Assembly: GCA_964411135.1 (NCBI GenBank)
Contig: CAYPJS010000078.1
Location: forward strand, 111,495 to 175,494
DNA length: 64,000 nucleotides
From: an uncultured Anaerolinea sp.
Lineage (GTDB): Bacteria; Chloroflexota; Anaerolineae; Anaerolineales; Anaerolineaceae
Reading direction: 5' to 3'
The position numbers and the translations under genes were made by a program. Shown in pieces: positions 1,899 to 64,000 of the stretch; the stretch's first letter is position 1; the number at the start of each line of letters is the position of its first letter. The notes beneath the pieces were generated by a model. That model saw only the letters and a list, made by a program, of their open reading frames with translations. It had not been told where the DNA came from and did not search any database.

Positions 1899-4800
1899 CT
1901 AAACTTTTGGATTAACCGTCCGCCGTTCGCGCGTGAGGTTATGAAATAATGTAACCGTTCCCGGGGAAGGCTTGGCATCTAATTCTTCCCGGAGAATTTG
2001 TTTCAATGCATCATACGCCTGGACAACGCCGCTGGTATTTCCCTTGGCTGATTGAGCCCGCATCACAAGGCAGACCATAGGTTCATAAGTCGGGTCAAAA
2101 TTGAGCAGGAGCTGTGATGTGGTGATTACCTGGTCCAGTTCGCCTTGCTGGAGCTGCAATTCTGCCAGCTGCATCATGGCATCCATTGCCATCTGATGAT
2201 AACGTTCCCGTTCTGCAGTAACCCAGTGATCGGACAGTTCGGGCAGGAGATAACCTTTATAAAGCTTCACTGCCGAAGTGAGATACTTAATGCGCTCATT
2301 TATTTTTACTGCACGTCGAGCAGCGGCCAGGTGCTGATTGAAATTTTCATAGTCGGCTTCATAATCCATCCCGCGGTTAAACAGGTAGAGTTCATCCTCA
2401 AATAACACTGCGTCTTTGCCAGCTGCGTGCCTCAAGCGGTAGATCGTATTTTTAAAGCGCAGCTTCAACTCGGAGGGAGTTGAATCTGGCCAGAAGATTT
2501 CACCAATTTCTTCTTTGGTCAAACCCTCAGGGTGCATAAGCAAGAGCAGCAGCAAATCCCGAGCATTTTGAGACATCCACTCGGCCCCGGTAATTGTATG
2601 ATCGCCAATTTTGATTTGAATTTTGCCGAATGTCAGGAAGACCAGCTCTGGCGGAGCCAATCTTACGACCTGCGATTGGCGCCGGATCTGCTTTCGGATA
2701 CCAGGCAGTTTTTGTTCGAAAATCGAAACCTGAGATAAAAGGCCTGAAAATTTCATTGACAGATCTTCAGGAATCGATTTTTGATTTAATGCTTTTTCGA
2801 TACTTCTGCTTTCGGACATCAATAAATGGGTTAATTCTGGATTTTGGATAATGGGTGACAGGTTTTCGAGGATGTGTCGGGTCGAGGTGAATTGTCCAGA
2901 TGCGGCGGTTGCCAATGCCGAAAGGATTCTGCATCGGTTTGCTTCAATATGATGGCCTTCCTGAGCAAAAAATTCCATCGCCTTGCCGAATTCAAAAACG
3001 GCAGTTTCAAAATCATTATTTTCAAAAGCAATTTTCCCTCGCAACAATCCGCAAAGGTTGACCTGGTAGGGTGAGTTCGCGTCACTCGCCAGAGTCATTG
3101 CATCTTCAAGGGCTTCTTCAGCTTTCCGGATAGATTTTCGACCCAGGGCGAGGTCAGCATTGGTGTACTGCAGATAAAAGTGGAGGAATTGATCATCAAT
3201 TTGCCGGTCAATTTCAGCAGCCTTGGCGTAGGCATCCTCAGCCTCCCGCATTGATTTCAAATCGCGGAAAAGGTCTCCCAGACTGGTCAGGGCATAGGCT
3301 TCCAGGCGTTGATATCCCCCCAACCGGGCGTATTGGATGGACTGCTCAAACTCGAAAAAAGCTTTCTCATACTCGCCAACCAAAAAATGAACCACCCCGA
3401 CGTTATTGAGTAAATTGGCCTGCCAAACCACATTCCCGGTTGATTGATAATACGCAAGGACATCCAGATATGTTTGCTCAGCTTCCGCGAATCTTCCCAG
3501 GTACTGCAAATCCCCGCCGATGTCCAGGGCAACTTTTGTTGCGCCTTGTTCATGGCCTGCGTTTTGATAAAGGACCCTGGCTTTTTGCAGCCAATCGAGG
3601 GCATCCACCAGTTTCCCCGATTGGTACAAGGCGGATCCTTTCGCGTGGTAGGCACCAGCGAGAAGAGAACTCAATGAGGTCCCATCCGATAAACGGATAG
3701 CTTCCTCTGCATCCTCCAATGCCTGCTGGAGGTTTCCCGCCAAACGGAAAGCGGTAGAACGTCTCACATGGGTAATAACTGCGATTTCATTGTCAGGCCG
3801 CACTTTCAACAAAGCTAGAGCTTTGCCTGTGAACTGAATACCAGCCTTTGGATCACCCAGCATCATCATCACCGCGCCGTAGATGGATAAAATGATGGCG
3901 GATTCATCCACCAATAACGTCGGTAATTTCTCCAACCAGTCATGAACTGTCAGGAGCCGCCCCTGGGTAATCATGAATTGACCTGCTCGCTCGATCAACC
4001 GTGCGGTCAACTCTTTATCACCAATCCGTTCACAGACCTGATAAGCCCGCTCCCAATCCAATTGTTCCTGGAAATACTCAGCCAATTTAAAGAGGATTAA
4101 TCTTGTTTCATCCGGGTAAAGCCGGCTCATCTGTGCCTGTAAAAAGTCTCTGAACAGATGATGGTATCTCAGCCAGATCCGATCCTCGATCACAGGTAAG
4201 GTAAATAGATTATTGCGCTGGACTGTATCCATTAGCATTTGCCAGTCCGCAGTCATATTGAGGGCAGCCCCAATCACCTTTTCGCACCTGTCAACATCGA
4301 ACTCGTCCAATAGCGAAGATCGGAATAGGAAAAGCTTAACCTCATCAGTTTGATGCTCTAAAACCTGCTGGGCTAGGTAATCGTAGAGGCTGACGCCTGC
4401 CACATGTTTTGCCTGGAAACGTGTGGTCACGCGCCCATTCTTAATTTCGGTCGAGAGCACCAGACCTGTGATCCAACCTTCGGTGAGCGCTGCCAGGTTG
4501 GAAGCATCCGCCTCATTCAGGATGATGCGATGGTTCTGCAGATAAAGGGATTGGATTTCTTCCATCCGGAAGGCCAGGTCTTCGAACCCCAATCCGCCCA
4601 CGGTTGATCGGGCTACCAGCAGGGGCATATCGGAAAGCGGAAGCAGCCTTCTGGAAGAGATGACCATGTGGCAGTTTTCATCGACCATCATCAGGAACCG
4701 GTTGATGAAATAGTTGATATCCTGGGTATCTTCTACCAGATGGTAGTCATCCAGGACGAAGAGGAAGTGCTCGGTTATGGTTTCATAAATATCATTGACA

Positions 4801-5162
4801 ACCAGAGACACCAGCGCATCCAGATTTAATCGTGCCTGCGACATTCCCTGCAAGGCTGGCATGCAGCTCTTACCAAATTCAGGGAAGACGGCATTCATGG
4901 ACGCAATGAAATGGGCAATAAAGCGTTGAGGATCTTTGTCCAGGTCATCCAATGCCAGCCAACACACAGGCTGCAAGGTTTGATTCACAAAGTCAACCAG
5001 TAAGGAGGTTTTTCCATACCCGGCCGGCGCCGCAACGATGATCAGGCGGTTATCGATAGACTCTTCAAGCACACTTAACAATCGTGGCCTTGAGAGTAAT
5101 TCTCCTCGCCGGCGAGGGATTATTAATTTGGTTCGTGTGATCGGAATTGAGATATCCATCAT
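1899..5162 (-). CDS. MalT-like STAND NTPase-TPR transcriptional regulator with C-terminal OmpR-type wHTH and BTAD domain
   Basis: N-terminal TKLIIP..R..LLSRPRL; Walker A APAGYGKT; Walker B FVLDDYH; WLRYHHLFRDFL; TPR repeats; 'LTFGKIQI...ARDLLLLLL...IFWPD...FKNTIYRLR' wHTH; 'LYKGYLLPE...WV..ERE...DPTYE' BTAD. Confidence 0.9.
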   Translation of the reverse strand: MMDISIPITRTKLIIPRRRGELLSRPRLLSVLEESIDNRLIIVAAPAGYGKTSLLVDFVNQTLQPVCWLALDDLDKDPQRFIAHFIASMNAVFPEFGKSCMPALQGMSQARLNLDALVSLVVNDIYETITEHFLFVLDDYHLVEDTQDINYFINRFLMMVDENCHMVISSRRLLPLSDMPLLVARSTVGGLGFEDLAFRMEEIQSLYLQNHRIILNEADASNLAALTEGWITGLVLSTEIKNGRVTTRFQAKHVAGVSLYDYLAQQVLEHQTDEVKLFLFRSSLLDEFDVDRCEKVIGAALNMTADWQMLMDTVQRNNLFTLPVIEDRIWLRYHHLFRDFLQAQMSRLYPDETRLILFKLAEYFQEQLDWERAYQVCERIGDKELTARLIERAGQFMITQGRLLTVHDWLEKLPTLLVDESAIILSIYGAVMMMLGDPKAGIQFTGKALALLKVRPDNEIAVITHVRRSTAFRLAGNLQQALEDAEEAIRLSDGTSLSSLLAGAYHAKGSALYQSGKLVDALDWLQKARVLYQNAGHEQGATKVALDIGGDLQYLGRFAEAEQTYLDVLAYYQSTGNVVWQANLLNNVGVVHFLVGEYEKAFFEFEQSIQYARLGGYQRLEAYALTSLGDLFRDLKSMREAEDAYAKAAEIDRQIDDQFLHFYLQYTNADLALGRKSIRKAEEALEDAMTLASDANSPYQVNLCGLLRGKIAFENNDFETAVFEFGKAMEFFAQEGHHIEANRCRILSALATAASGQFTSTRHILENLSPIIQNPELTHLLMSESRSIEKALNQKSIPEDLSMKFSGLLSQVSIFEQKLPGIRKQIRRQSQVVRLAPPELVFLTFGKIQIKIGDHTITGAEWMSQNARDLLLLLLMHPEGLTKEEIGEIFWPDSTPSELKLRFKNTIYRLRHAAGKDAVLFEDELYLFNRGMDYEADYENFNQHLAAARRAVKINERIKYLTSAVKLYKGYLLPELSDHWVTAERERYHQMAMDAMMQLAELQLQQGELDQVITTSQLLLNFDPTYEPMVCLVMRAQSAKGNTSGVVQAYDALKQILREELDAKPSPGTVTLFHNLTRERRTVNPKV

Positions 5163-5421
5163 ACCCGCGGGCAGGCAGCTACCCTGTCAAATCTGGTGCT
5201 TGTCGCACACCCCGAATAAAAACTTATGTCGGGTCGAAGAACATAAATGGTCGGTCTTAATAATACACGCTAATCAAAATCGATCCAATGGATATTTTGT
5301 TGGTATTTACTAAACAATAAAACACCTGGCAACACTTTTAGAAACAATTCTTACTGTGGGTACTCGGTAAATCGATGTTTCCGATTACAATTCAGAAAGC
5401 ACAATCCTTGAGGAGGTTCGA

Positions 5422-6414
5422 ATGGAATATAAATTCTTGGGGCAGACCGGGGTCAAGGTATCGCAGCTATGTTTCGGCACCATGACCTTCGGCGACGAAG
5501 CCGATGAGGAAATGTCAGCCCAAATGTATAAGCGCTGCCGGGACGCGGGCATCAATTTTTTTGATTGCGCAAATATGTATTCAACGGGGCGTGCAGAAAG
5601 CATACTTGGCAAGTTAATTGAAGGCCAGCGCGAGGAAGTTGTCATTACCTCCAAGGCATATTTCCCGATGGATCAGGACCCAAATGCGCGCGGTGCCTCC
5701 AGGTATCATATTTTTAATTCGGTTAATGCAAGTTTGCGGCGTTTAAATACAGACCGTATCGATGTGTTCTTTATCCACCGTTTTGACGAATATACCGGTA
5801 TGGAAGAAACCTTGCGGGCTTTGGATGACCTGGTCCGCATGGGAAAAATCCTTTATCCGGCAGCCAGCAATTACGCAGCCTGGCAGATAATGAAATCCCT
5901 TGGGATAGCAGATATCCATAATTGGACCCGCTTCTCTGTGATCCAACCGATGTACAACCTGGTAAAGCGTACAGCAGAGGTCGAAATTTTACCCATGGCT
6001 GAGTCAGAAAACCTGGGTGTCATTCCGTATTCTCCTCTGGGTGGCGGTCTCCTTTCCGGAAAATATGCTGGCGGAACCAAACCTGAACAAGGGCGACTGA
6101 TCCGCAGTCTGCGCTATAAAACCCGGTACCAGGAAGGATGGATGCACAAGACCGCCGAAAATCTCAAATCCTTTGCGGAGAAGCTTGGTGTCCATCCCGC
6201 TTCGCTTGCAATTGCCTGGGTTGGGGCCAATCCGGCAGTTACTGCTCCCATAATTGGAGCCCGAAACCTTGACCATCTCGAAACTGCCTTGCGGTCTGTG
6301 GATATCGATATGACGGATGAACTCTACGAACAGGTTACGGCATTATCCCCAACACCGGCTCCGGCAACTGACCGGAACGAAGAGCGTTTGGTCGACACGT
6401 ATGGTCCACGGTAA
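5422..6414 (+). CDS. Aldo/keto reductase
   Basis: LGQTGVKVSQLCFGTMTFG, GINFFDCANMY, SLRRLNTDRID, PYSPLGGGLL, PIIGAR motifs; RBS GAGGAGG. Confidence 0.95.
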   Translation: MEYKFLGQTGVKVSQLCFGTMTFGDEADEEMSAQMYKRCRDAGINFFDCANMYSTGRAESILGKLIEGQREEVVITSKAYFPMDQDPNARGASRYHIFNSVNASLRRLNTDRIDVFFIHRFDEYTGMEETLRALDDLVRMGKILYPAASNYAAWQIMKSLGIADIHNWTRFSVIQPMYNLVKRTAEVEILPMAESENLGVIPYSPLGGGLLSGKYAGGTKPEQGRLIRSLRYKTRYQEGWMHKTAENLKSFAEKLGVHPASLAIAWVGANPAVTAPIIGARNLDHLETALRSVDIDMTDELYEQVTALSPTPAPATDRNEERLVDTYGPR

Positions 6415-6453
6415 GAACACTCACCTGTTTCAGGGTATTGGAGCGTTCATCAG

Positions 6454-8316
6454 ATGGTAGAAATCAGGCCGATAACCGAGATTCGTCCAAAGATAAGCAG
6501 CGAATTCGACCTGGGTGAGTTCGTTCCCCGCACCGAGGCTATCGCCCATGCTTATAGGCTTGGCAAGCAATTGCATGGCGGTCAATTGCGGATGAGTGGT
6601 GAACCTTACTTCGATACGCACTGCGTCTGGGTGGGCGGTTTTCTGGACAAGCTGGTGCAAAACGAAGCCTGGACTATTGCAGGCTTACTGCATGATAGTG
6701 TTGAAGACAGGGGTGAATCACTCGAAAAAATAAAATCCGCCTTTCCTGGCATGCTTGGAGAAGAGGTGGCGTTTATTGTCGACGGCGTAACCAAGATCAG
6801 CAATCCACGGGATGGACGCTCGCGCGAAATTGAAACCTTGCGGAAAATTGCTCAATTCCGCGATCCAGGTGTATTCCTGGTCAAACTTGCCGACAAGAGT
6901 CACAACTTAATGACCCTGGAACACATGCCGGTTGAAAAGGGCCGCCAGAAGGCGACCGAAGCGATACGGGCTTATGGAAAACTGGCGGGAATCTTAAATT
7001 GCTACCGGTGGCGATGCTGGATCGAGGACCTGGCTTTTCCCTTTGCCGAACCGGAAACCTACCAATATGTCCGGTCGCAGATTGACGCCGACCCTAGGTT
7101 GGATACCCGGTTCATTAACCAGATGATGGAGCAGTTGGGTTCTCTCATGGAGAAGGCGGGCATCGACGGACGGGTTGATCTGGTTGTAAATGGTTATTGG
7201 CAGACCTGGCAGAAATTACGCCGGCTGGCGCGAGCCCGAAAAACCTCGATGAATAGTTTTAAAAACATTAATGACTTGATCAGCTTCCGTATGGTCGTGG
7301 CGAGTGATGATCCTACCCAATGCTACAGCCTGCTCCCGCATGTGAACCGTTACCTTGGCGCCTACCTGGATCAAAACAGCTTTGATGACTACATAGCATG
7401 CCCTCAGAACCGTTACCGGGCCTTGCAAATAACTGCCTGGATCCCTGATCGGGGAGCCGTAGAGGTGGCGATAGCCACTGAAGATATGGAAGGCGAAAAC
7501 AACTGGGGAGTGATCCATGCCATCAAAAGAGGGAAAGATATTTCCTCATATTCTCCAGTGGAAATCCTGACGCCGACAGGCGGCGCCCGATTCTTACCAG
7601 AAGGATCTACTGTCCTGGACGCGGTCGCATCAATCCAGCAAGAACTCCTGCTGGATAAAATCAGTTCGGTCAAAGTCAATGGTAGCCTGGCAAGGTTATC
7701 GGACCGTGTTCACCCTGGAGATGTCGTGGAAGTAGTCACAGGCAGCGGGAGACTGATTCCCAATGAGGAGTGGTTAACTTTTGCCAACCCATCGACGGCG
7801 CGGCTCTTGCGCTCAGTGCTGGTTACAGAAGCGTTAAAAAAATCCGCCGAATCTGGCCGTCAAATAATCAAACCAGCTCTGGCTCAGAGGGGAATCCTTG
7901 CGCTAGAGGACGTACAAGCGCTCGAACCTGACCGCTTTGACAACCTTCTCGAGCAACTCGCCTGCGCTTCACTCGAAGATTTGTATGCATCACTCGGCTC
8001 AGGGGCAGTCCGGTTGATTGATTTGGAAAAAGCACTCGATGGGGCCGGAATCGCTGCCCAAGTATTAAATTGGACTACCGTGAATTTTATCGGCACGCAA
8101 GAATCGAACAGGCCGGGGGTTCTGGCACGTCTGGCTTCTTTAATTTCACAGGTTCAGGGCAACATATTGAGATCTGTAAACAATACTCTGCCGTACGGAG
8201 GCTTCTACCTGCGTTTGGTCATTGGAAATCTGACCGCTGAAAACCGGATCGAACTGCGAAAGGCCTTTGAGGAATCCGGAGTCGAATTGGAATCGTTGGA
8301 TATTGCTGGGGTTTGA
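6454..8316 (+). CDS. Long RelA/SpoT homolog (HD hydrolase, degenerate synthetase, TGS, helical, ACT)
   Basis: HGGQLRMSGEPY, LLHDSVED, VDGVTKI, VKLADKSHN; DLISFR, DDYIACP, EVAIAT; TGS LPEGSTVLD...VKVNG; ACT NRPGVLARL. Confidence 0.92.
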   Translation: MVEIRPITEIRPKISSEFDLGEFVPRTEAIAHAYRLGKQLHGGQLRMSGEPYFDTHCVWVGGFLDKLVQNEAWTIAGLLHDSVEDRGESLEKIKSAFPGMLGEEVAFIVDGVTKISNPRDGRSREIETLRKIAQFRDPGVFLVKLADKSHNLMTLEHMPVEKGRQKATEAIRAYGKLAGILNCYRWRCWIEDLAFPFAEPETYQYVRSQIDADPRLDTRFINQMMEQLGSLMEKAGIDGRVDLVVNGYWQTWQKLRRLARARKTSMNSFKNINDLISFRMVVASDDPTQCYSLLPHVNRYLGAYLDQNSFDDYIACPQNRYRALQITAWIPDRGAVEVAIATEDMEGENNWGVIHAIKRGKDISSYSPVEILTPTGGARFLPEGSTVLDAVASIQQELLLDKISSVKVNGSLARLSDRVHPGDVVEVVTGSGRLIPNEEWLTFANPSTARLLRSVLVTEALKKSAESGRQIIKPALAQRGILALEDVQALEPDRFDNLLEQLACASLEDLYASLGSGAVRLIDLEKALDGAGIAAQVLNWTTVNFIGTQESNRPGVLARLASLISQVQGNILRSVNNTLPYGGFYLRLVIGNLTAENRIELRKAFEESGVELESLDIAGV

Positions 8317-8318
8317 AC

Positions 8319-8819
8319 ATGTTGATTGCGGTAATAAGTGACACCCATAACCGTGTTGAAACACTGCAGGCTGCAATTGACTATGTAATTTCGAGACAAA
8401 TTGAGAATATTTTTCACTGCGGTGATGTAACCAATCTTGAAACCGCCCGCCTGCTGGGTGGATTAAATGTCCACTTTGTCTATGGCAATGGAGATTCAGA
8501 CGCTCAAGCAATCACTGAATTTTTGACGTCTATGAATCCAAAGGCCACCGGCGGGCCTATTTTTTCAGGTCAGCTTGCCGGGAAAACCATCGGGGCAACG
8601 CACAGCCATATTACAGGTGTATTAAATTCATTGATTACAGACGGCACCTACGATTATGTTTTTCATGGGCATACCCATATTCAAAGAAATCAGAAAATCG
8701 GAAGGACGAGAGTTATCAATCCTGGCGCGTTGGGTAGTTCTCGGTATAACGGGCAGACCTTATGCGTTCTTGACCTGGAAACCGATCAAGCCGAGTTTCC
8801 AGAATTCGAAGGGGTATAA
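8319..8819 (+). CDS. YfcE-family metallophosphoesterase
   Basis: ISDTH, HCGD, VYGNGD, HSH, HGHTH, INPGA calcineurin-like motifs; ATG at 8319 chosen over TTG 8313. Confidence 0.92.
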   Translation: MLIAVISDTHNRVETLQAAIDYVISRQIENIFHCGDVTNLETARLLGGLNVHFVYGNGDSDAQAITEFLTSMNPKATGGPIFSGQLAGKTIGATHSHITGVLNSLITDGTYDYVFHGHTHIQRNQKIGRTRVINPGALGSSRYNGQTLCVLDLETDQAEFPEFEGV

Positions 8820-8868
8820 CCCCTTTTTAAGGTTAATCACAATGGAACGAATAAGATATAATTTTCAT

Positions 8869-9516
8869 ATGGATGATCGCCCAACTCCTCTCGTCATTGC
8901 CATTGCTGGCGGTTCAGGCTCAGGGAAAACTACTGTAGCCAATGAAATCTTAAAACAGGTTGGCTCGCACCGCATTGCTTATTTACCGCATGACGCCTAT
9001 TATCGGGACCTGACCGATTTACCTTTGAACCAACGCGCTGAAGTAAACTTTGACCACCCCAACTCACTCGAATCCAGTCTGTTGATTGAGCATATTCGAA
9101 AACTAAAACGGTGGGAGCCGGTCGATTTACCGATATATGACTTCACGCACCATAGAAGAACTGGTGAGACTCGGCGAGTCGAGCCCTCAATGGTCATAAT
9201 CGTTGAAGGAATTTTGATCTACGCCGAACCAGAACTTCGCGAAGAATTCGATGTAAAGATCTTCGTAGACACTGATTCGGATTTGCGGTTTATCAGGCGA
9301 CTTGAGCGAGACATTACTGAACGCGGGCGAACCACAGAAACGGTCGTTCGCCAGTACCTGACCACCGTTCGTCCAATGCACATGGATTTTGTAGAGCCGT
9401 CAAAACGTTATGCGGATGTCATAATTCCAGAAGGCGGCTTTAATACCGTTGCCCTCGACATGGTCATTTCCCGCATCGAGTCGCTGCTGCATACCAATCT
9501 TCAAGGCACTAAATGA
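8869..9516 (+). CDS. udk: Uridine kinase
   Basis: IAIAGGSGSGKTT, HDAYY, NFDHP, LPIYDF, EGIL, RRLERD, PSKRYADVIIPEG; start moved to ATG 8869 (8842 also possible). Confidence 0.95.
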   Translation: MDDRPTPLVIAIAGGSGSGKTTVANEILKQVGSHRIAYLPHDAYYRDLTDLPLNQRAEVNFDHPNSLESSLLIEHIRKLKRWEPVDLPIYDFTHHRRTGETRRVEPSMVIIVEGILIYAEPELREEFDVKIFVDTDSDLRFIRRLERDITERGRTTETVVRQYLTTVRPMHMDFVEPSKRYADVIIPEGGFNTVALDMVISRIESLLHTNLQGTK

Positions 9517-10058
9517 CCAAAGAACAGCGCTTAAAATTCCAGCGGATTCTTGCGCTGGTTTTTGCGCTTGCTATTACATTGATTCTCTATTTAAACCGCG
9601 ATAAAGTCCAGGACCTGGAAGGTTTAGGGTATCCTGGTATTTTCCTATTCTCATTACTCTCCAATGCAACTTTGATCTTGCCTCTTCCAGGGGTCTTGTT
9701 TACTTCTGCAATGGGTGCGGTCTTCAATCCATTCTGGGTCGCTGTGGCGGCCGGGAGCGGTGCTGCCTTAGGAGAAATTTCTGGGTACCTGGCAGGCTAC
9801 AGCGGTCAGGGATTGGTCGAACGCACAGCCTGGAGTCAGCGCGTAGAAGGATGGATGCGGAAATATGGAAGCATAACCGTGCTGCTGTTGGCGTTCATTC
9901 CAAATCCGCTATTCGACATCGCCGGGATCACGGCAGGAATTTTAAAAATGCCGCTGCAAATATTTCTTTTCTGGTGTGTGATTGGAAAAATCCTGAAAAT
10001 GCTGGTGTTCGCCCTGGGCGGTTCTTTTATCTTATCCAGAATCCCCTGGCTTCAATAA
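9513..10058 (+). CDS. DedA/VTT (SNARE-associated) family membrane protein
   Basis: LILPLPG, GAALGEISGYLAG, LLLAFIPNPLFDIAGITAG, GKILK motifs; hydrophobic. Confidence 0.88.
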   Translation: MTKEQRLKFQRILALVFALAITLILYLNRDKVQDLEGLGYPGIFLFSLLSNATLILPLPGVLFTSAMGAVFNPFWVAVAAGSGAALGEISGYLAGYSGQGLVERTAWSQRVEGWMRKYGSITVLLLAFIPNPLFDIAGITAGILKMPLQIFLFWCVIGKILKMLVFALGGSFILSRIPWLQ

Positions 10059-10068
10059 ATTCAGGCAG

Positions 10069-10845
10069 CTATTTTAATTTCAATTCAACCTTTTTGGCTG
10101 GCCCCAAATGCTGACGGGCATTCCCGTTCACAACACACAAACTCAGGGCATCCCCGCTGTCGAAGATAGCGACCAGCTCGCCGGGTCGAGCACTGCCAAA
10201 TGTTGTTGAAATACCATGAATCCTTTGATCCCCGCACCGAATTTCTTGCACAATTTCGTCTGCAAGGTCGGTTCTGGTGATATTGGTCACCAGGTTTCCA
10301 AACGTATCTGAATATAGTATTTGCCCCTCAATTACATTGCCTATACGCATAGGCACCGGGGTTTCGATAGAAATAGGATTGTTGATTTTTGGCCCGAAGG
10401 CAGATAAAGGCGTTCCATTGGCAACAAACGCTGCCGCAGGGGCAAAAATATCTCGGCCATGGAATGTGCTGCTGATGGTTTGCAGTTGCAGCTGGGTATT
10501 CTCCAGGGCATACACTTCGACCGGCACCCCTGAGGAGAATGGGACGGTGAACAAACCGTTGTCAGGCCCGACAAAAAATTGATCTCCCGCCCTCGCGATA
10601 AGCCCGCGTCTATTCGTGCCAACACCCGGGTCTACCACGGCAATATGGATCGTACCGGGTGGAAAATAACGATAAGCCCGTCCAAGGATAATGGCACCTT
10701 GTAAAATGTTTTGAGGTTGTACGGCGTGGGTAATATCAGCAATCTGAACGGTGGGGTGGATTTTCCAGATTACCCCTTTCATCACCCCGACAAACTCATC
10801 CTGAATGCCAAAATCAGTCGTTAGAGTTACAACCTGAGTTCGCAT
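10069..10845 (-). CDS. SAM hydroxide adenosyltransferase / DUF62 family (chlorinase/fluorinase superfamily)
   Basis: TLTTDFG, VGVMKGVI, VVDPGVGT.RR, VGPDNG, STFHGRD.FAP, D.FGNL.TNI. Confidence 0.92.
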   Translation of the reverse strand: MRTQVVTLTTDFGIQDEFVGVMKGVIWKIHPTVQIADITHAVQPQNILQGAIILGRAYRYFPPGTIHIAVVDPGVGTNRRGLIARAGDQFFVGPDNGLFTVPFSSGVPVEVYALENTQLQLQTISSTFHGRDIFAPAAAFVANGTPLSAFGPKINNPISIETPVPMRIGNVIEGQILYSDTFGNLVTNITRTDLADEIVQEIRCGDQRIHGISTTFGSARPGELVAIFDSGDALSLCVVNGNARQHLGPAKKVELKLK

Positions 10846-59694: not shown

Positions 59695-61089
59695 TTAGAA
59701 TATCTGGGGAAAAGCCTGCAGGATAAAAATAATCGAGTGATAAAACGTTTGTGGAAAGATTCCAAACAACAACAGGAACAGGATTCCACCAATCAGAATC
59801 ACCCGCTCCGGCCAGTTTTCACCCAGGTGCCAGGATCGGTCCTCAGAATGCACCAACTCTGAGAGCACCTGGATAGCGCTGAAAACCAGTCCCGCAGTGC
59901 CGACTGCAGCCCCAATGAATGCGGTTTGAGAAATTTCAGCCAGCTGCTCGAATACCTCCAACCGCACCGGCAGCCCGGCCAGCAAAGGGAAGCCGGCGAT
60001 CGAAAGCAGGGAACTCAACAGGCCAAGGGAAATCAACGGATACTTGTGTGCCAATCCGCGCACACCAGCCAGTGTCAGGGGTATAGCATGATTTTCAAGG
60101 CTGGCGAGGGAGAATGCCAGAACCAGAAGGGCCAGCAGCCGCGGCATGAACGACGCCGCGAACAGCATCCATCCCGGCAGATTGTTCAAACTAATGGCAA
60201 ACAGGGCAAACCCCGTCTCAAAGATAACGGCGTAGCCAAAAATTCGCGCCAGGTTAACTTGAAACATAGCCCACAACCCGGCGGTGAAAACCATCATTAC
60301 AGCCACAACCCGCAGCACATTATAAAGATCTTCAGAAGAGCGTAAGAAAGGCGTGGCATTGATAAAGTCCAGGCCGAGCAGCAGGATGGCAGTGGGCAAA
60401 AGACTGAGGACGAAACCAACCGGGAACGGATGGGTTTCCGTCATCATCATCGGCAGCCAGTTATAAAATGGGAAAACCGCGAGCCAGAAGGCAAAACCCA
60501 GTCCAAGGAAGAGACCCGCACGGTTGAAAGAGGCTGTCTCAGCTGGATTAACGCCAGCAGCATTCATCAACCACCCAGCAAAAAGGATAGCTGGCACAGC
60601 CAGAGTTTGAAAGATAAGGTACCGCTGCAATCCCGGTCCAACTGGCCTGCCAGGCGGTGACAAAAATGGGATGCTGAACAGGACGGCGGTTTCGACTAAT
60701 AAAGCCGCATACAGGAAGGGTTCAACAGCCAATGCTGCTACCAACGCAGCCAGCATACCCAGGCCAAAAGGCGCAAACAATCGGTGGGGCCAGGCCATCA
60801 ATGCCAGCCCAAACCAGACTGCGCCAATACCGTACAGCAGTGTCAGGATCATCCGGTCTTCAGGTGACAGGATAAAACGCCGTCCCAGAACCGGCAGCGT
60901 GGACGACAGGGTAAAACTGAGGCTGCCCAGATTCACTGGAGCGTTGATTGGAATGACTGCAGCTGCCAAACTCAAAATAAAGCACAATCCAGCAGACAAT
61001 CCCAGCGTCAGATTTTGATTTCTACGCAGGGACCACAGAAACAAACCTCCCGCGGCGGGGACCACTACCCATAAAACCGGTGCACTCAA
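59695..61089 (-). CDS. Proton-conducting-transporter (NuoN/MrpD-like) membrane subunit, degenerate
   Basis: About 14 TM; RYLIFQ, FPFYNWLP, Q.NL.RIFGYA, SIAGFPLLAG align with antiporter-like subunit motifs. Confidence 0.8.
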   Translation of the reverse strand: MSAPVLWVVVPAAGGLFLWSLRRNQNLTLGLSAGLCFILSLAAAVIPINAPVNLGSLSFTLSSTLPVLGRRFILSPEDRMILTLLYGIGAVWFGLALMAWPHRLFAPFGLGMLAALVAALAVEPFLYAALLVETAVLFSIPFLSPPGRPVGPGLQRYLIFQTLAVPAILFAGWLMNAAGVNPAETASFNRAGLFLGLGFAFWLAVFPFYNWLPMMMTETHPFPVGFVLSLLPTAILLLGLDFINATPFLRSSEDLYNVLRVVAVMMVFTAGLWAMFQVNLARIFGYAVIFETGFALFAISLNNLPGWMLFAASFMPRLLALLVLAFSLASLENHAIPLTLAGVRGLAHKYPLISLGLLSSLLSIAGFPLLAGLPVRLEVFEQLAEISQTAFIGAAVGTAGLVFSAIQVLSELVHSEDRSWHLGENWPERVILIGGILFLLLFGIFPQTFYHSIIFILQAFPQIF

Positions 61090-61670
61090 GGCTGTTCCTC
61101 CACTGGGAGGAGGCTTAACCAGTAAGCGCCGGTCAGGGCTATGCCGAGAGTAACCAGTGCCAGCAGGCCGGCCACTAGGATGGACGAGACGACCGCCGCA
61201 TAGATGATTTCAAAACCACATAATACATTCATCAGGCCAAGGATGATACGGAATGGCCCGGAGGTCATGCCCAACTGCAGCAGCCCCATTCCGATCAGCA
61301 GGATACTGCTGAATAGTGCAGGAAAGGTCAATGGAATCCAATCGGTGCCATTCGGGGCAACGGAAAAAGCCAGAATGACCGACAAACTGGCTGCCAGGAT
61401 TCGGAAAATTTTTCCCGAAACGGCGGTGGTTGGCACGGGCAATCCGCCCAAGGCGTTGACAGAGGAGCCAAGGATTGCAGCCGCCATCCAGCCTGAAATC
61501 AACTTTACAGACGCCAGCCCGATCGGCCATACCTGAGCTACAAACCAAAACACGCCCAGGTACTGGATTGCCACAGCTAAAATGTTGATGCGCCATTTCT
61601 CAGTCCAGAGCAGAGAAATGGAAGCCCCAAGCACAAGGACGGCTGCGATGATGTCGAAGATCTGCATCAA
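61086..61670 (-). CDS. Small polytopic membrane protein, distantly HyfE/NuoK-like
   Basis: 194 aa with about six TM, sandwiched between two antiporter-like genes; family call tentative. Confidence 0.65.
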   Translation of the reverse strand: MMQIFDIIAAVLVLGASISLLWTEKWRINILAVAIQYLGVFWFVAQVWPIGLASVKLISGWMAAAILGSSVNALGGLPVPTTAVSGKIFRILAASLSVILAFSVAPNGTDWIPLTFPALFSSILLIGMGLLQLGMTSGPFRIILGLMNVLCGFEIIYAAVVSSILVAGLLALVTLGIALTGAYWLSLLPVEEQP

Positions 61671-61671
61671 G

Positions 61672-63267
61672 TTATCCTGTCCGAGTCGCGAGCAGAGTCA
61701 GCATCAAAGCCAGGAGCAGGAAAGCCCAAAGGACACCGCCCTCCCCCTCGAACAAAATAGTCAGAAAACTAACAAGGCGCCGTAATCCGCGATAAATGAA
61801 CCATAAAAAATTGGAGAGCCAGGTCAGGCGGAAAATCCCAGAAATGCGACTCCACCAAACCTTCGCTGACGCCCAATTACCGGAAGCTGAAATTGCCATT
61901 GGAAGGGCTATAAACCGTGCTCGCGCACCGGTGAATATGGCAGCCAATGCAAAAACAGCCAGACCGATCAACCAAGGACCGATTTGCATTCCTCCTTCGA
62001 TCCCCAACCAGACGGTAACCCAGCCGCTGACGATCAAGAGGATTAAACCCAGGGGGTAGGTCCCTCGCACCCAGCCATCCAGTTGTGAAAAATTCTCATC
62101 GTTGCGGAAGGCGTGTTTGATAAATCCGGCCAGGGTGAGCGCCGTAGTCAAAATAACCAGGATCTCGCCAAAACCGACGGGCTGTACAAACAACCCTGAC
62201 CAACCCCTGGCTGGGATGCTAAATGGCAAGCCGCTAATCATCAAAGTGGCAAGGATGGGCAAGAATACCAGGTTCCGCCCTCTTGCCGAAAAAAGAAAGA
62301 GAAATGTCCCGCCGAAAATTAACATCAAACCCCAGGGCAGTACCTGTAAAGGATTGCCCTGTAAAACACACAGAAAACCAAGCCCGGCGGTGGTCAATAA
62401 CCAATACTGCCTGCCTTCGATTTCATTGTGTGCAGACAGCCACATGGAAGCGCCGTACAAACTTAAAACCACCATCACCCCATACATCAATGAATGCCAA
62501 TTTTCCAACCCTTGCAGGCTTGAAATGCGGGCTAAGGCAGCCATCCCGCCTGCGTATGCAGCAACGCGTAAGAATGATATTAATCCCCGCTGGAAAGGAA
62601 TATCAACCGCAAACGTCAAGTTCAGGGGCAGCAGCCCAAGCCGTATCCCGATAGCTAACAGCACCAACAAACTGGCGGTAGCATTCATGGTGGAAAATTC
62701 CAGGGGGAATCCATCCGTCCTCTGATACACCAACGCCCCAACAATCAAAAAAGTACTGATACTTTTAACTACGAATACCATCAAACCGCGTGAGGTAAAC
62801 CGCCATGTCCGCGATAATCTCAAAACCACCAGGAAATCGAGCGTATCTAATGGAACCAACGCCAACACAAATGCCAGCGGGGTTTCGGCCATCACAACCA
62901 GAATCCCAAGTGCAGCAACGCCCATGTTTGCAGCCCAAGTGGCCGGGTTGGAGCGTAGCTGCAAGCGTGCACTGGCTGTCATCAAAATTGCAAGGCAGGC
63001 ACTGACCAGGGCAAGGCTAAACGGCCAGGAAATCTCATCCCATCCATAGCGAATTGGGTCTGCCGTAATCGGGTCAAATGGCCGCCAGGGGGCAATTTCG
63101 ATCGGGGTCAGCGAAAGCCAATGGGATGCCAGCACCCCTCCCCAGATGATCAACATCATTATTATCGATGTAAGGTAGGCATAACCTGTGCCGCGAGGTA
63201 AAAAGCGCAGGGTGAACACCACCAGGGCTGAGAGTAACAGCAGGATGACAGGCAGCAATGTTAACAT
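61672..63267 (-). CDS. Large membrane protein, highly divergent NuoL/MrpA-like antiporter subunit
   Basis: About 16 TM; LAIGIRLGLLPL resembles KSAQ.P/KLG..P; AASMWLS...ISGLPFS resemble later antiporter motifs; tentative. Confidence 0.65.
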   Translation of the reverse strand: MLTLLPVILLLLSALVVFTLRFLPRGTGYAYLTSIIMMLIIWGGVLASHWLSLTPIEIAPWRPFDPITADPIRYGWDEISWPFSLALVSACLAILMTASARLQLRSNPATWAANMGVAALGILVVMAETPLAFVLALVPLDTLDFLVVLRLSRTWRFTSRGLMVFVVKSISTFLIVGALVYQRTDGFPLEFSTMNATASLLVLLAIGIRLGLLPLNLTFAVDIPFQRGLISFLRVAAYAGGMAALARISSLQGLENWHSLMYGVMVVLSLYGASMWLSAHNEIEGRQYWLLTTAGLGFLCVLQGNPLQVLPWGLMLIFGGTFLFLFSARGRNLVFLPILATLMISGLPFSIPARGWSGLFVQPVGFGEILVILTTALTLAGFIKHAFRNDENFSQLDGWVRGTYPLGLILLIVSGWVTVWLGIEGGMQIGPWLIGLAVFALAAIFTGARARFIALPMAISASGNWASAKVWWSRISGIFRLTWLSNFLWFIYRGLRRLVSFLTILFEGEGGVLWAFLLLALMLTLLATRTG

Positions 63268-63274
63268 GGACAGC

Positions 63275-64000
63275 CTAGATCAATTCCTCGAAAGGTTTTC
63301 GATGAATGAATTGACCCATTCCGGCCTGACCGTACCATTGACCCTCATTGACAATCAATTTACCCCGCAGAAAGACCTTTTCGATCGCCCCATCCAATTT
63401 CCACCCTTCGTAAAGGTTGTAATCGGTGCGCTGAGCTGAATGTGCAGTACCGTAGGTTAAATTCCTCTTCGGATCCAGAATGATCAGGTCAGCATCTGCA
63501 CCCGGGTTGATATTTCCCTTTTGAGGATACATACCGAAGATCTTTGCGGGGTTGGTACTGGTTAATTCCACAAAGCGATTGGGGGTAATCCGACCGCTGG
63601 CAACTGCTTTGCTCCAAAACACTGGCATGCGGTCACCAACTCCTGGCAGGCCGTTTGGAATTCTGGTGAAATCGTCTTTGCCAAGTTCTTTTCCCGGGAT
63701 GGCTATTTGGGTGCCCTCATACGATATGGCATGCGCACCGTCGAAGAAAAACGGACAGTGATCGGTTGCCAGTACCTGAATGGTACCATCCTCAATCCCC
63801 TGCCACAATCGAGCCTGGTCTGGTTCACCGCGCAGGGGGGGCGAACAAACAAATTTTGCACCATCCTTTTGGGCCAGATTGTCCTCAGTAAAAAAGAGAT
63901 ACTGCGGGCAGGTCTCCCCCATGACAGACAATCCATTTTCACGGGCATATTCAAGCATGTCAACTTCACCGCCCACGTTCATATGCACGATGTACAATGG
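63275..64000 (-). CDS. hydA: Dihydropyrimidinase / D-hydantoinase, C-terminal part (gene starts beyond the window)
   Basis: YIVH, GETCPQYL, KFVCSPPLR, ATDHCPF, IPNGLPGV, STNPAKIFGMYP.KG.I.PGADAD. Confidence 0.9.
   Translation of the reverse strand, partial: PLYIVHMNVGGEVDMLEYARENGLSVMGETCPQYLFFTEDNLAQKDGAKFVCSPPLRGEPDQARLWQGIEDGTIQVLATDHCPFFFDGAHAISYEGTQIAIPGKELGKDDFTRIPNGLPGVGDRMPVFWSKAVASGRITPNRFVELTSTNPAKIFGMYPQKGNINPGADADLIILDPKRNLTYGTAHSAQRTDYNLYEGWKLDGAIEKVFLRGKLIVNEGQWYGQAGMGQFIHRKPFEELI

Follow-up and report, generated by a model that had tools for sequence, protein, structure and literature searches.

A long RelA/SpoT homologue of the Anaerolineaceae with an intact hydrolase and a remodelled synthetase-like domain: a probable stand-alone (p)ppGpp hydrolase related to proteins of the Candidate Phyla Radiation

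The stretch of DNA analysed here, referred to below as the window, comprises 64,000 nucleotides of contig CAYPJS010000078.1 (positions 111,495 to 175,494, forward strand) in the assembly GCA_964411135.1 of an uncultured Anaerolinea sp. (Chloroflexota, Anaerolineaceae), and carries a gene for a RelA/SpoT homologue (RSH) of the long type, in which a hydrolase (HD) domain is followed by a domain with the fold of the (p)ppGpp synthetase (SYNTH) domain and altered motifs (the pseudo-synthetase), by a TGS domain, by a helical region and by a C-terminal ACT/RRM-like domain (Table 1). An original prediction, made from the letters of the window, had described this open reading frame as a long RSH with an intact hydrolase, an eroded synthetase and no zinc finger; the frame lies where it was placed and every motif then quoted was found in position, namely LRMSGEPY (residues 45–52), THC (55–57), HDSVED (80–85) and LADKSHN (145–151) in the first domain, and LVVNGYWQT (243–251), NDLISFR (273–279), SFDDYI (309–314), PQNRYRALQ (317–325), EVAIAT (337–342) and NNWG (349–352) in the second. 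Taken together, the data presented below suggest that the protein is probably a long RSH that works as a stand-alone (p)ppGpp 3'-pyrophosphohydrolase independent of the ribosome, provided with a regulatory pseudo-synthetase and derived by horizontal transfer from bacteria of the Candidate Phyla Radiation (CPR).

Table 1. Features of the RSH gene and of its neighbourhood (positions in the window)
Feature	Position	Strand	Details
Aldo/keto reductase gene	5422..6414	+	PF00248, 241.5 bits; 39 nt upstream of the RSH gene; same neighbour in loci L021, L022 and L023
Long-RSH gene	6454..8316	+	ATG start, 620 aa; HD, pseudo-synthetase, TGS, helical and ACT/RRM domains; no Core, no zinc-finger domain
HD hydrolase domain	6541..7038	+	Residues ~30–195; PF13328 (HD_4), 70.9 bits (cutoff 27.2)
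D213-P214-R215 loop	7090..7098	+	D and R invariant in the short family, variable in canonical Rel
Pseudo-synthetase domain	7168..7533	+	Residues ~239–360; PF04607 (RelA_SpoT), 35.9 bits (cutoff 27)
NNWG (NxWG in the short family)	7498..7509	+	Residues 349–352; replaces AExG
TGS domain	7555..7743	+	Residues ~368–430; PF02824, 29.7 bits; Q395 at the position of the CCA-sensing His
Helical region	7744..8067	+	Residues ~431–538; ~36 aa shorter than in canonical Rel; joins the ACT domain directly, no zinc finger between
C-terminal ACT/RRM-like domain	8071..8307	+	Residues ~540–618; beta-alpha-beta-beta-alpha-beta in the AlphaFold2 model
YfcE-family metallophosphoesterase gene	8319..8819	+	PF12850, 97.6 bits; TIGR00040, 63.9 bits (cutoff 56.25)
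Uridine kinase gene	8842..9516	+	PF00485, 141.2 bits; 22 nt after the phosphoesterase gene; order kept in same-genus loci L021 and L022
VTT/DedA-family membrane protein gene	9513..10058	+	PF09335, 68.2 bits; overlaps the uridine kinase stop by 4 nt; kept in L021 and L022
S-adenosylmethionine hydroxide adenosyltransferase gene	10069..10845	-	PF01887 and PF20257; convergent to the RSH-YfcE-udk-dedA string

Its length of 620 residues and the four domains beyond the HD domain distinguish the protein from the small alarmone hydrolases (SAH or Mesh1, a single HD domain of about 180–230 residues). On the NCBIfam model TIGR00691 (spoT_relA) it scores 251.1 bits, under the curated cutoff of 499.2, and its Pfam matches to ACT and AH/RIS are sub-threshold only; the GC content of the gene is 0.515, compared to a window mean of 0.513. 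A total of 1.84 billion cluster representatives were searched exhaustively, and 129 full-length ones were aligned together with the window protein and the Rel encoded in the same genome; the hits split in two groups, about 45 canonical Rels (median length 728 residues) and about 80 proteins of 569–671 residues (median 609). The latter, referred to here as the short family and amounting to at least about 80 clusters, align end to end with the window protein at 27–37% identity and rank above the canonical Rels; the window protein carries all of the traits of this family, that is, an intact HD domain, the NxWG motif, the loss of the Gln and Arg of EVQIRT, D213 and R215, the lack of both the Core and the zinc-finger domain (ZFD), and a length of 570–670 residues. 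In several analyses the window protein was represented by the cluster representative P0001, which is identical to it except at residue 341 (Thr in P0001, Ala in the window protein, Arg in neither).

Residues were mapped to the RelSeq numbering by means of the alignment with canonical Rels. All of the eight hydrolase residues checked (R44, H53, H77, D78, E81, D82, D144 and N148) are kept, as R46, H56, H80, D81, E84, D85, D147 and N151, in agreement with what had been claimed for this domain, and the corresponding columns are conserved in 78–81 of the 81 short-family representatives; the predicted Mn-binding and catalytic set of the HD domain is thus complete.

In the synthetase-fold domain, the residues replaced and those kept are listed in Table 2. 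Structural studies have assigned the coordination of Mg2+ to D264 and E323, the clamping of the ATP adenine to R241 and R269 and the stacking of the guanine to Y308 (PMC7983052), while the Gln of EVQIRT (Q347 in RelTt) and D272 have been called catalytic, both being replaced in the hydrolase-only SpoT of Acinetobacter baumannii (PMC9974481). The domain of the window protein lacks the equivalents of R241 (half of the adenine clamp), the phosphate-binding K243, the Gln and Arg of EVQIRT and H312; of the synthetase set of Rel[HS] proteins (R241, K243, K251, D264, R269, E323, Q325 and R327) R241, K243, Q325 and R327 are replaced. The claim that most of the basic ATP/GDP-binding residues are lost is therefore correct for the equivalents of R241, K243 and R327, and has to be amended for those of K251 and R269, which remain; the two acidic residues said to persist do so. 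SFDDYI, one of the five changes cited as a sign of erosion, is uninformative, because the canonical Rel of the same genome reads EFDDYI at this place (the RelA-type "EXDD" form).

Table 2. Synthetase-domain positions (RelSeq numbering) in the short family and in the window protein
Position	Short family	Window protein
R241	V, T or M in the clade of the window protein	V244 (changed)
K243	N, G or K (K in just 12/81)	N246 (changed)
S247		Q250 (changed)
K251	K in 78/81	K254 (kept)
D264	D in 79/81	D274 (kept)
R269	R in 72/81	R279 (kept)
K304	Q in the clade of the window protein	Q318 (changed)
N306	N in 73/81	N319 (kept)
Y308	Y in 80/81	Y321 (kept)
S310	A in 72/81	A323 (changed)
H312	Q in 55/81	Q325 (changed)
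E323	E in 75/81	E337 (kept)
Q325	A in 72/81	A339 (changed)
R327	R in 0/81	A341 (changed)
AExGIAAHWxYK motif	NxWG, N and G in 81/81	NNWG 349–352

The synthetase motifs are thus non-canonical, as had been stated, and it is the term "eroded" that was misplaced: to judge from sequence conservation, the domain is remodelled and conserved throughout the family, with invariant residues of its own and under purifying selection. Besides N349 and G352, D213 and R215 are found in 80 of 80 short-family proteins, being variable in the 45 canonical Rels. Neither pair has a counterpart in canonical Rel, and both could point to a novel site or to a latch between domains. Among seven orthologues from Anaerolineaceae, dN/dS (the ratio of nonsynonymous to synonymous substitution rates) is, as a rough value, about 0.07 for the HD domain (amino-acid identity 78%), about 0.10 for the pseudo-synthetase (71%), and about 0.19 for both the helical region (58%) and the ACT domain (51%); moreover, across 18 genomes the identity of the short RSH to the window protein tracks that of their canonical Rel to the resident one, with coefficients of 0.81 (Pearson) and 0.74 (Spearman) and a mean of 64% for the RSH and 66% for Rel. 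The purifying selection and the parallel with Rel indicate that the pseudo-synthetase is being maintained and is not decaying.

Three features that had escaped the original prediction concern the Core, the TGS domain and the spread of the altered motifs, which are conserved across a large family. Counting the residues between conserved landmarks (medians for canonical Rels and for the short family), the Core linker from SYNTH to TGS measures 53 residues in canonical Rels, 18 in the short family and 17 in the window protein, which corresponds in the latter to a deletion of about 35 residues; the helical region measures 142, 106 and 107 residues, the zinc-finger segment (CC..HxxxC) 28, 5 and 5, and the C-terminal domain 100, 74 and 80, respectively. 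The conserved-cysteine domain is absent in all of the 80 short-family representatives, and the statement that the window protein has no zinc finger stands. The His of the TGS domain, which stacks on the tRNA's 3' CCA end (H420 in Bacillus subtilis, H432 in Escherichia coli RelA; PMC7797070), is present in 45 of 45 canonical Rels and in none of the 80 short-family proteins, the window protein having Q395.

An AlphaFold2 (AF2) model of the window protein, built from an alignment of 31 sequences (mean predicted local distance difference test, pLDDT, 87.7; predicted template modelling score 0.75), displays in order a helical HD domain, an alpha/beta synthetase fold, a TGS beta-grasp, a helical bundle and an ACT/RRM fold, the elements of which (strand 540–547, helix 556–566, strands 570–578 and 584–591, helix 595–606, strand 612–617) have a pLDDT of about 90. 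The TGS, helical and ACT regions announced for this protein are therefore all in place, the first by its Pfam match and the others by the model. No helix-turn-helix is modelled between the helix at 343–358 and the strand at 369, and the beta-grasp starts only about 10 residues past the last helix of the SYNTH domain. The closest structures retrieved by Foldseek are those of Rel and SpoT, not of Mesh1; the top match is full-length SpoT (7qpr, E = 3.7e-23), and catalytic fragments of Rel can be superposed by the N-terminal half at template modelling scores of 0.81–0.85 (normalised to the target). By phmmer against solved structures, the best scores are obtained with Rel 8fr8 (8e-51) and B. subtilis Rel 6yxa (2.4e-47), that of Acinetobacter SpoT 7qpr (1.3e-26) being much weaker.

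The assembly (3.1 Mb, 98% complete) contains three RSH genes: besides that of the 620-residue protein, a gene for a 735-residue Rel on contig C158 and one for a small alarmone hydrolase of 224 residues, which consists of a single HD_4 domain and has the motif LLHDTLED, on contig C141 (L005, 1387..2061, minus strand). The 735-residue Rel scores 749.7 bits on TIGR00691, has strong HD, SYNTH, TGS and ACT domains, and is canonical in its HD and SYNTH motifs, with GRPKHIYS, EVQIRT, AEFGIAAHWRYK and the zinc finger CCNPAPGD...HRQDCPN; the separate synthetase that the original prediction expected elsewhere in the genome has thus been found. A single 3.1-Mb genome accordingly holds three potential (p)ppGpp hydrolases. 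Among related genomes with the short RSH, 18 were checked, and all 18 have a canonical Rel as well.

The distribution of the short family is peculiar. Close homologues of the window protein (54–84% identity) are very numerous in metagenomes and, where named, are attributed to Anaerolineaceae, Thermanaerothrix, Bellilinea, Anaerolineae or Chloroflexota; an orthologue occurs in 44 of 101 Anaerolineaceae genomes (29 of the 54 of high quality; 31 of 74 genera), the frames being intact save for three fragmentary matches. Of 120 other genomes, which sample the class Anaerolineae evenly and include three of the same order, none has it. The canonical Rel, by a PF04607 search, is present in 118 of 121 genomes of the class; this search cannot trace the short family, a loose first pass having missed the weak domain even in the genome of the window. 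A DNA scan for distant members, based on an alignment of the pseudo-synthetase fragment, and the names attached to distant members point to Candidatus Woesebacteria, Shapirobacteria, Collierbacteria and a "Patescibacteria group", so that all of the members which can be assigned to a lineage outside the Anaerolineaceae are Patescibacteria (Microgenomates). Four more carriers with CPR-type short RSH genes (L007, L010, L017 and L019; 0.7–1.2 Mb) are labelled Pseudomonadales or Gammaproteobacteria, labels which are probably wrong since L017 clusters with a Patescibacteria sequence with 100% support. With a narrow pseudo-synthetase profile, strong matches were found in 1 of 201 Patescibacteria genomes sampled at the level of the phylum and in 2 of 151 from the class of one carrier, both counts being lower bounds; the family is patchy in CPR too.

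In the main maximum-likelihood tree (59 sequences, 596 columns, LG+C20 PMSF; an earlier quick tree had 83 sequences) the short family is split from all canonical Rels with 100/100 support, and the Rel of the same genome falls among the latter (99/97). The proposal that the lineage is independent of Moraxellaceae SpoT agrees with this clan of its own, in trees which contained no named SpoT sequence. Within the short family, whose deeper branches have no resolution, the Anaerolineaceae form a clade (100/100), the sister of which is P0123, a 646-residue RSH (100/100). P0362, which shares the 90% cluster of P0123, is encoded on a contig of 22.6 kb next to an aspartyl-tRNA synthetase which is 69% identical to a protein of a "Microgenomates group bacterium"; the other matches of this synthetase are to Collier-, Ryan- and Sungbacteria and Parcubacteria, except for one at 59% that is labelled Spirochaetia. 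The 90% cluster of P0123 also includes two 53-residue proteins, one of them with a name from Haloferax chudinovii, which looks like a clustering artefact.

If the root is placed on the canonical side, the clade of the window protein sits inside the diversity of CPR, and the simplest history is probably that of a single old transfer from a Microgenomates-type CPR bacterium to an ancestor within the Anaerolineaceae, followed by vertical descent and losses, given the presence in 44 of 101 genomes of the family and in 0 of 120 elsewhere in the class. Any such transfer must have been old, as the GC content of the gene equals the window mean and its divergence tracks that of Rel, and a recent transfer was rejected on these grounds. 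A local duplication of the resident Rel followed by decay was likewise rejected, by the tree and by the absence from the 120 other genomes of the class; the local derivation implied by the original prediction gives way to a probable horizontal acquisition, the named members outside the family being Patescibacteria.

According to the reading which we consider probable, the 620-residue RSH would be unable to make (p)ppGpp and would not be switched by starved ribosomes; together with the SAH it would degrade the alarmone made by the resident canonical Rel. The pseudo-synthetase would most likely be an allosteric or scaffolding module that sets the activity of the hydrolase, like the pseudo-synthetase of Acinetobacter SpoT, a role suggested by the conservation of the guanine pocket (Y308 and N306), of both acidic residues and of the new invariant residues, and by purifying selection; the retained pocket and acidic residues would suit the binding of a guanine nucleotide, and the ACT domain may give a second regulatory input.

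Several observations weigh against this interpretation. In A. baumannii SpoT (SpoTAb) the Core, the TGS domain and Mn2+ align the hydrolase site and the Core is needed for activation of the hydrolase (PMC9974481), so that a hydrolase devoid of the Core must use another activation mechanism. The Mg-binding acidic residues (equivalents of D264 and E323) are kept in 79 and 75 of 81 proteins, together with Y308, K251 and R269, and residual or altered transferase activity is therefore possible; D272, lost in SpoTAb, has its equivalent Asp in the window protein. As to the selective constraint, dS is saturated in most pairs and the dN/dS values are rough. As to the origin, the direction of the transfer is derived from parsimony, with the root taken to lie beyond the short family, and the taxonomic check covered a minority of the unnamed representatives. 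As to the partner synthetase, none with a strong domain was found in 8 of 14 CPR metagenome-assembled genomes (MAGs), a count confounded by their incompleteness.

The other six of these 14 CPR genomes encode, besides the short-family protein, a frame of about 450–507 residues with a strong synthetase domain (102–123 bits). The four partners that were extracted (L032, L033, L034 and L037) consist of HD, SYNTH and TGS domains, are canonical in their synthetase motifs and lack the helical region, the ZFD and the ACT domain; two of them (L034 and L037) have degenerate hydrolase motifs, one reading HDTVDH and IASRIHN, the other LHHCFKN. The latter two mini-Rels would represent a RelA-like [hS] state, and the CPR pairing resembles the RelA/SpoT split, of which it would be an independent counterpart. 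A more ambitious proposal, which we put forward as tentative and regard as doubtful on balance, is that the short family is an unrecognised long-RSH subfamily born in CPR and paired there with a truncated Rel, in a RelA/SpoT-like manner independent of Proteobacteria, in which the pseudo-synthetase is a working nucleotide-binding sensor, or a catalyst built around the Asp, Glu and Tyr residues and the new Asn, Gly, Asp and Arg, controlling a hydrolase without Core, and that the gene was later moved to the Anaerolineaceae.

The genes which follow that of the RSH have to be considered with regard to the substrate of the hydrolase. The ATG of the YfcE-family gene lies 2 nt past the RSH stop, and an alternative TTG at 8313 overlaps this stop by 4 nt; the RSH is translationally coupled to a putative phosphodiesterase, followed in turn by uridine kinase, an arrangement that would befit an operon for nucleotide salvage more than for stringent control. 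Since SAH/Mesh1-type HD domains are known for their promiscuity (titles of PMC9765508 and PMC9166373), and since the genome already has two more potential (p)ppGpp hydrolases in Rel and the SAH, an active HD domain with another physiological substrate, whether (p)ppApp, pGpp or a non-alarmone phosphoester (compare Mesh1 and NADPH), may be envisaged, a different substrate having been the other option named in the original prediction. We hold this to be unlikely: the residues that define the (p)ppGpp hydrolases of long RSHs are all kept, and the closest structures, as mentioned, are not those of Mesh1. Furthermore, of 11 other family loci, nine of them untruncated, six have the phosphoesterase gene directly 3' of the RSH gene, with a product only 37–43% identical, and it is missing in 3 of the 9 untruncated loci; it was not found beside the CPR copies of the short RSH, and the linkage is therefore confined to the Anaerolineaceae clade instead of being general in the short family. 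No promoter-like sites were detected in 5200–10300, and terminator-like sites occur there at chance level. Farther upstream, the minus strand bears a 1087-residue open reading frame (1899..5162) with an N-terminal P-loop (AAPAGYGKTSLL), a repeat-rich middle and a transcriptional-activator-like C-terminus, which looks like a large ATPase-type regulator; at the other end of the window, 60001–64000 is an oddity of composition, its 2-kb bins having strongly positive AT skews of 0.34 and 0.16, against about -0.12 to +0.11 elsewhere.

Somewhat less credible still is a bifunctional enzyme, in which the remodelled SYNTH domain would work as a pyrophosphokinase whose ATP site is non-canonical, making (p)ppGpp or a related nucleotide such as (p)ppApp or pGpp by means of the retained Asp and Glu and of the new invariant Asn, Asp and Arg. 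The conservation of the equivalents of D264, E323, Y308, N306, K251 and R269 in 72–80 of 81 proteins, of N349 and G352 in 81 of 81 and of D213 and R215 in 80 of 80, as well as the purifying selection on the domain, would be expected of a working catalyst, and no other strong synthetase was found in the 8 CPR MAGs mentioned above. Nevertheless, the Gln of EVQIRT, considered to be catalytic (PMC9974481), and the Arg of the same motif are gone family-wide, K243 and S247 are gone as well, with R241 in the clade of the window protein, and the Core, reported to be necessary for SYNTH activity (PMC9974481), is absent; where no partner was detected in CPR, the short-family copies have not reverted to the canonical synthetase residues, and 18 of 18 Anaerolineaceae carriers checked have kept a canonical Rel. 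Finally, that the gene is what remains of a decaying Rel duplicate, or encodes a scaffold without enzymatic activity, in either case with no selected catalytic function, as might be thought from the low model scores (TIGR00691, 251 vs the cutoff of 499; PF04607, 35.9 bits) and from the patchy occurrence (44 of 101 genomes), is highly improbable, and a pseudogene was rejected, in view of the intact frames of the orthologues save the three fragmentary matches, of an identity that tracks Rel (mean 64% vs 66%) with an overall dN/dS of about 0.1, of catalytic HD residues invariant over about 80 divergent clusters, and of a tree that rules out a recent duplication of the resident Rel.

Long RSHs which act only as hydrolases have been met before, plant RSH1 being one of them. 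Another, the SpoT[Hs] of Moraxellaceae, is also well known (PMC3153485, PMC9974481), and for the Chloroflexi only Rel was listed by Atkinson et al. (2011). No description of the short family was found in the searchable literature, although the 13 long-RSH subfamilies of Jimmy et al. (2020) may already include it; it is apparently an undescribed and independently evolved family, with an architecture and signatures of its own, and its occurrence in CPR and in one family of Chloroflexota is an unusual phyletic pattern. Its proteins are currently labelled in databases as "bifunctional (p)ppGpp synthetase/hydrolase" or "HD domain-containing protein", the former of which is probably wrong.

Hydrolase-only long RSHs are documented mainly for the SpoT of Moraxellaceae, where the model of activation relies on the Core and the ZFD, both absent here; should the window protein be an active hydrolase, the control of hydrolysis in long RSHs can be built differently, and the short family would offer a minimal scaffold for studying the allostery of a pseudo-synthetase. 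The family also provides a first handle on the alarmone metabolism of CPR, in which some genomes appear to pair a truncated Rel with a hydrolase-type protein and others seem to have the latter alone, and it is a likely case of a gene central to stress signalling that passed long ago from CPR to Chloroflexota, although long RSHs have been considered as rarely transferred (PMC3153485).

Among the known systems, that of the Moraxellaceae SpoT[Hs] (A. baumannii, 7QPR and 7QPS; PMC9974481) is the nearest in organisation: in both cases an intact HD domain is combined with a retained synthetase fold which does not look catalytic, the Gln of EVQIRT is replaced and a dedicated synthetase is present alongside. 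Apart from the Asp noted above, the two differ in that SpoTAb has both the Core and the ZFD, reported to be important for its hydrolase activity and wrapped round the hydrolase in the tau state, while the window protein has neither and carries instead the NxWG and DxR signatures; its lineage is that of Patescibacteria and Chloroflexota, not Gammaproteobacteria, and in sequence it is less similar to SpoTAb (1.3e-26) than to the Rel proteins (8e-51). With the Rel[HS] proteins (B. subtilis 6YXA, Streptococcus equisimilis 1VJ7, Thermus thermophilus 6S2T-V and the resident Rel) it shares the order of the domains and the hydrolase residues, and differs from them by the lack of the equivalents of R241, K243, S247, H312, Q325 and R327, of the AExGxAAHWxYK motif, of the Core, of the ZFD and of the TGS His.

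Long RSHs with a partial loss of the regulatory region at the C-terminus have also been reported (Atkinson et al.), as in the SpoT of the Haemophilus ducreyi type, which keeps the ACT domain without the CC domain; these, compared here by their description only, are isolated cases within Rel or SpoT subgroups with [HS] motifs, whereas in the short family the loss of Core and ZFD is common to an entire family, which branches deeply and has its synthetase domain remodelled. As to the RelA[hS]/SpoT[HS] pair of Beta- and Gammaproteobacteria, the likeness lies in the ability of the short protein of CPR to pair with an HD-SYNTH-TGS partner of about 450–500 residues, the HD motifs of which are degenerate in 2 of 4 cases, in parallel to the division between a specialist for synthesis and one for hydrolysis; the origin would be independent, however, and the losses are others, since in CPR it is the entire C-terminal region that the synthetase partner lacks, and Core and ZFD that are missing from the hydrolase partner, while in the genome of the window the partner is a complete Rel, canonical in both its HD and its SYNTH domain.

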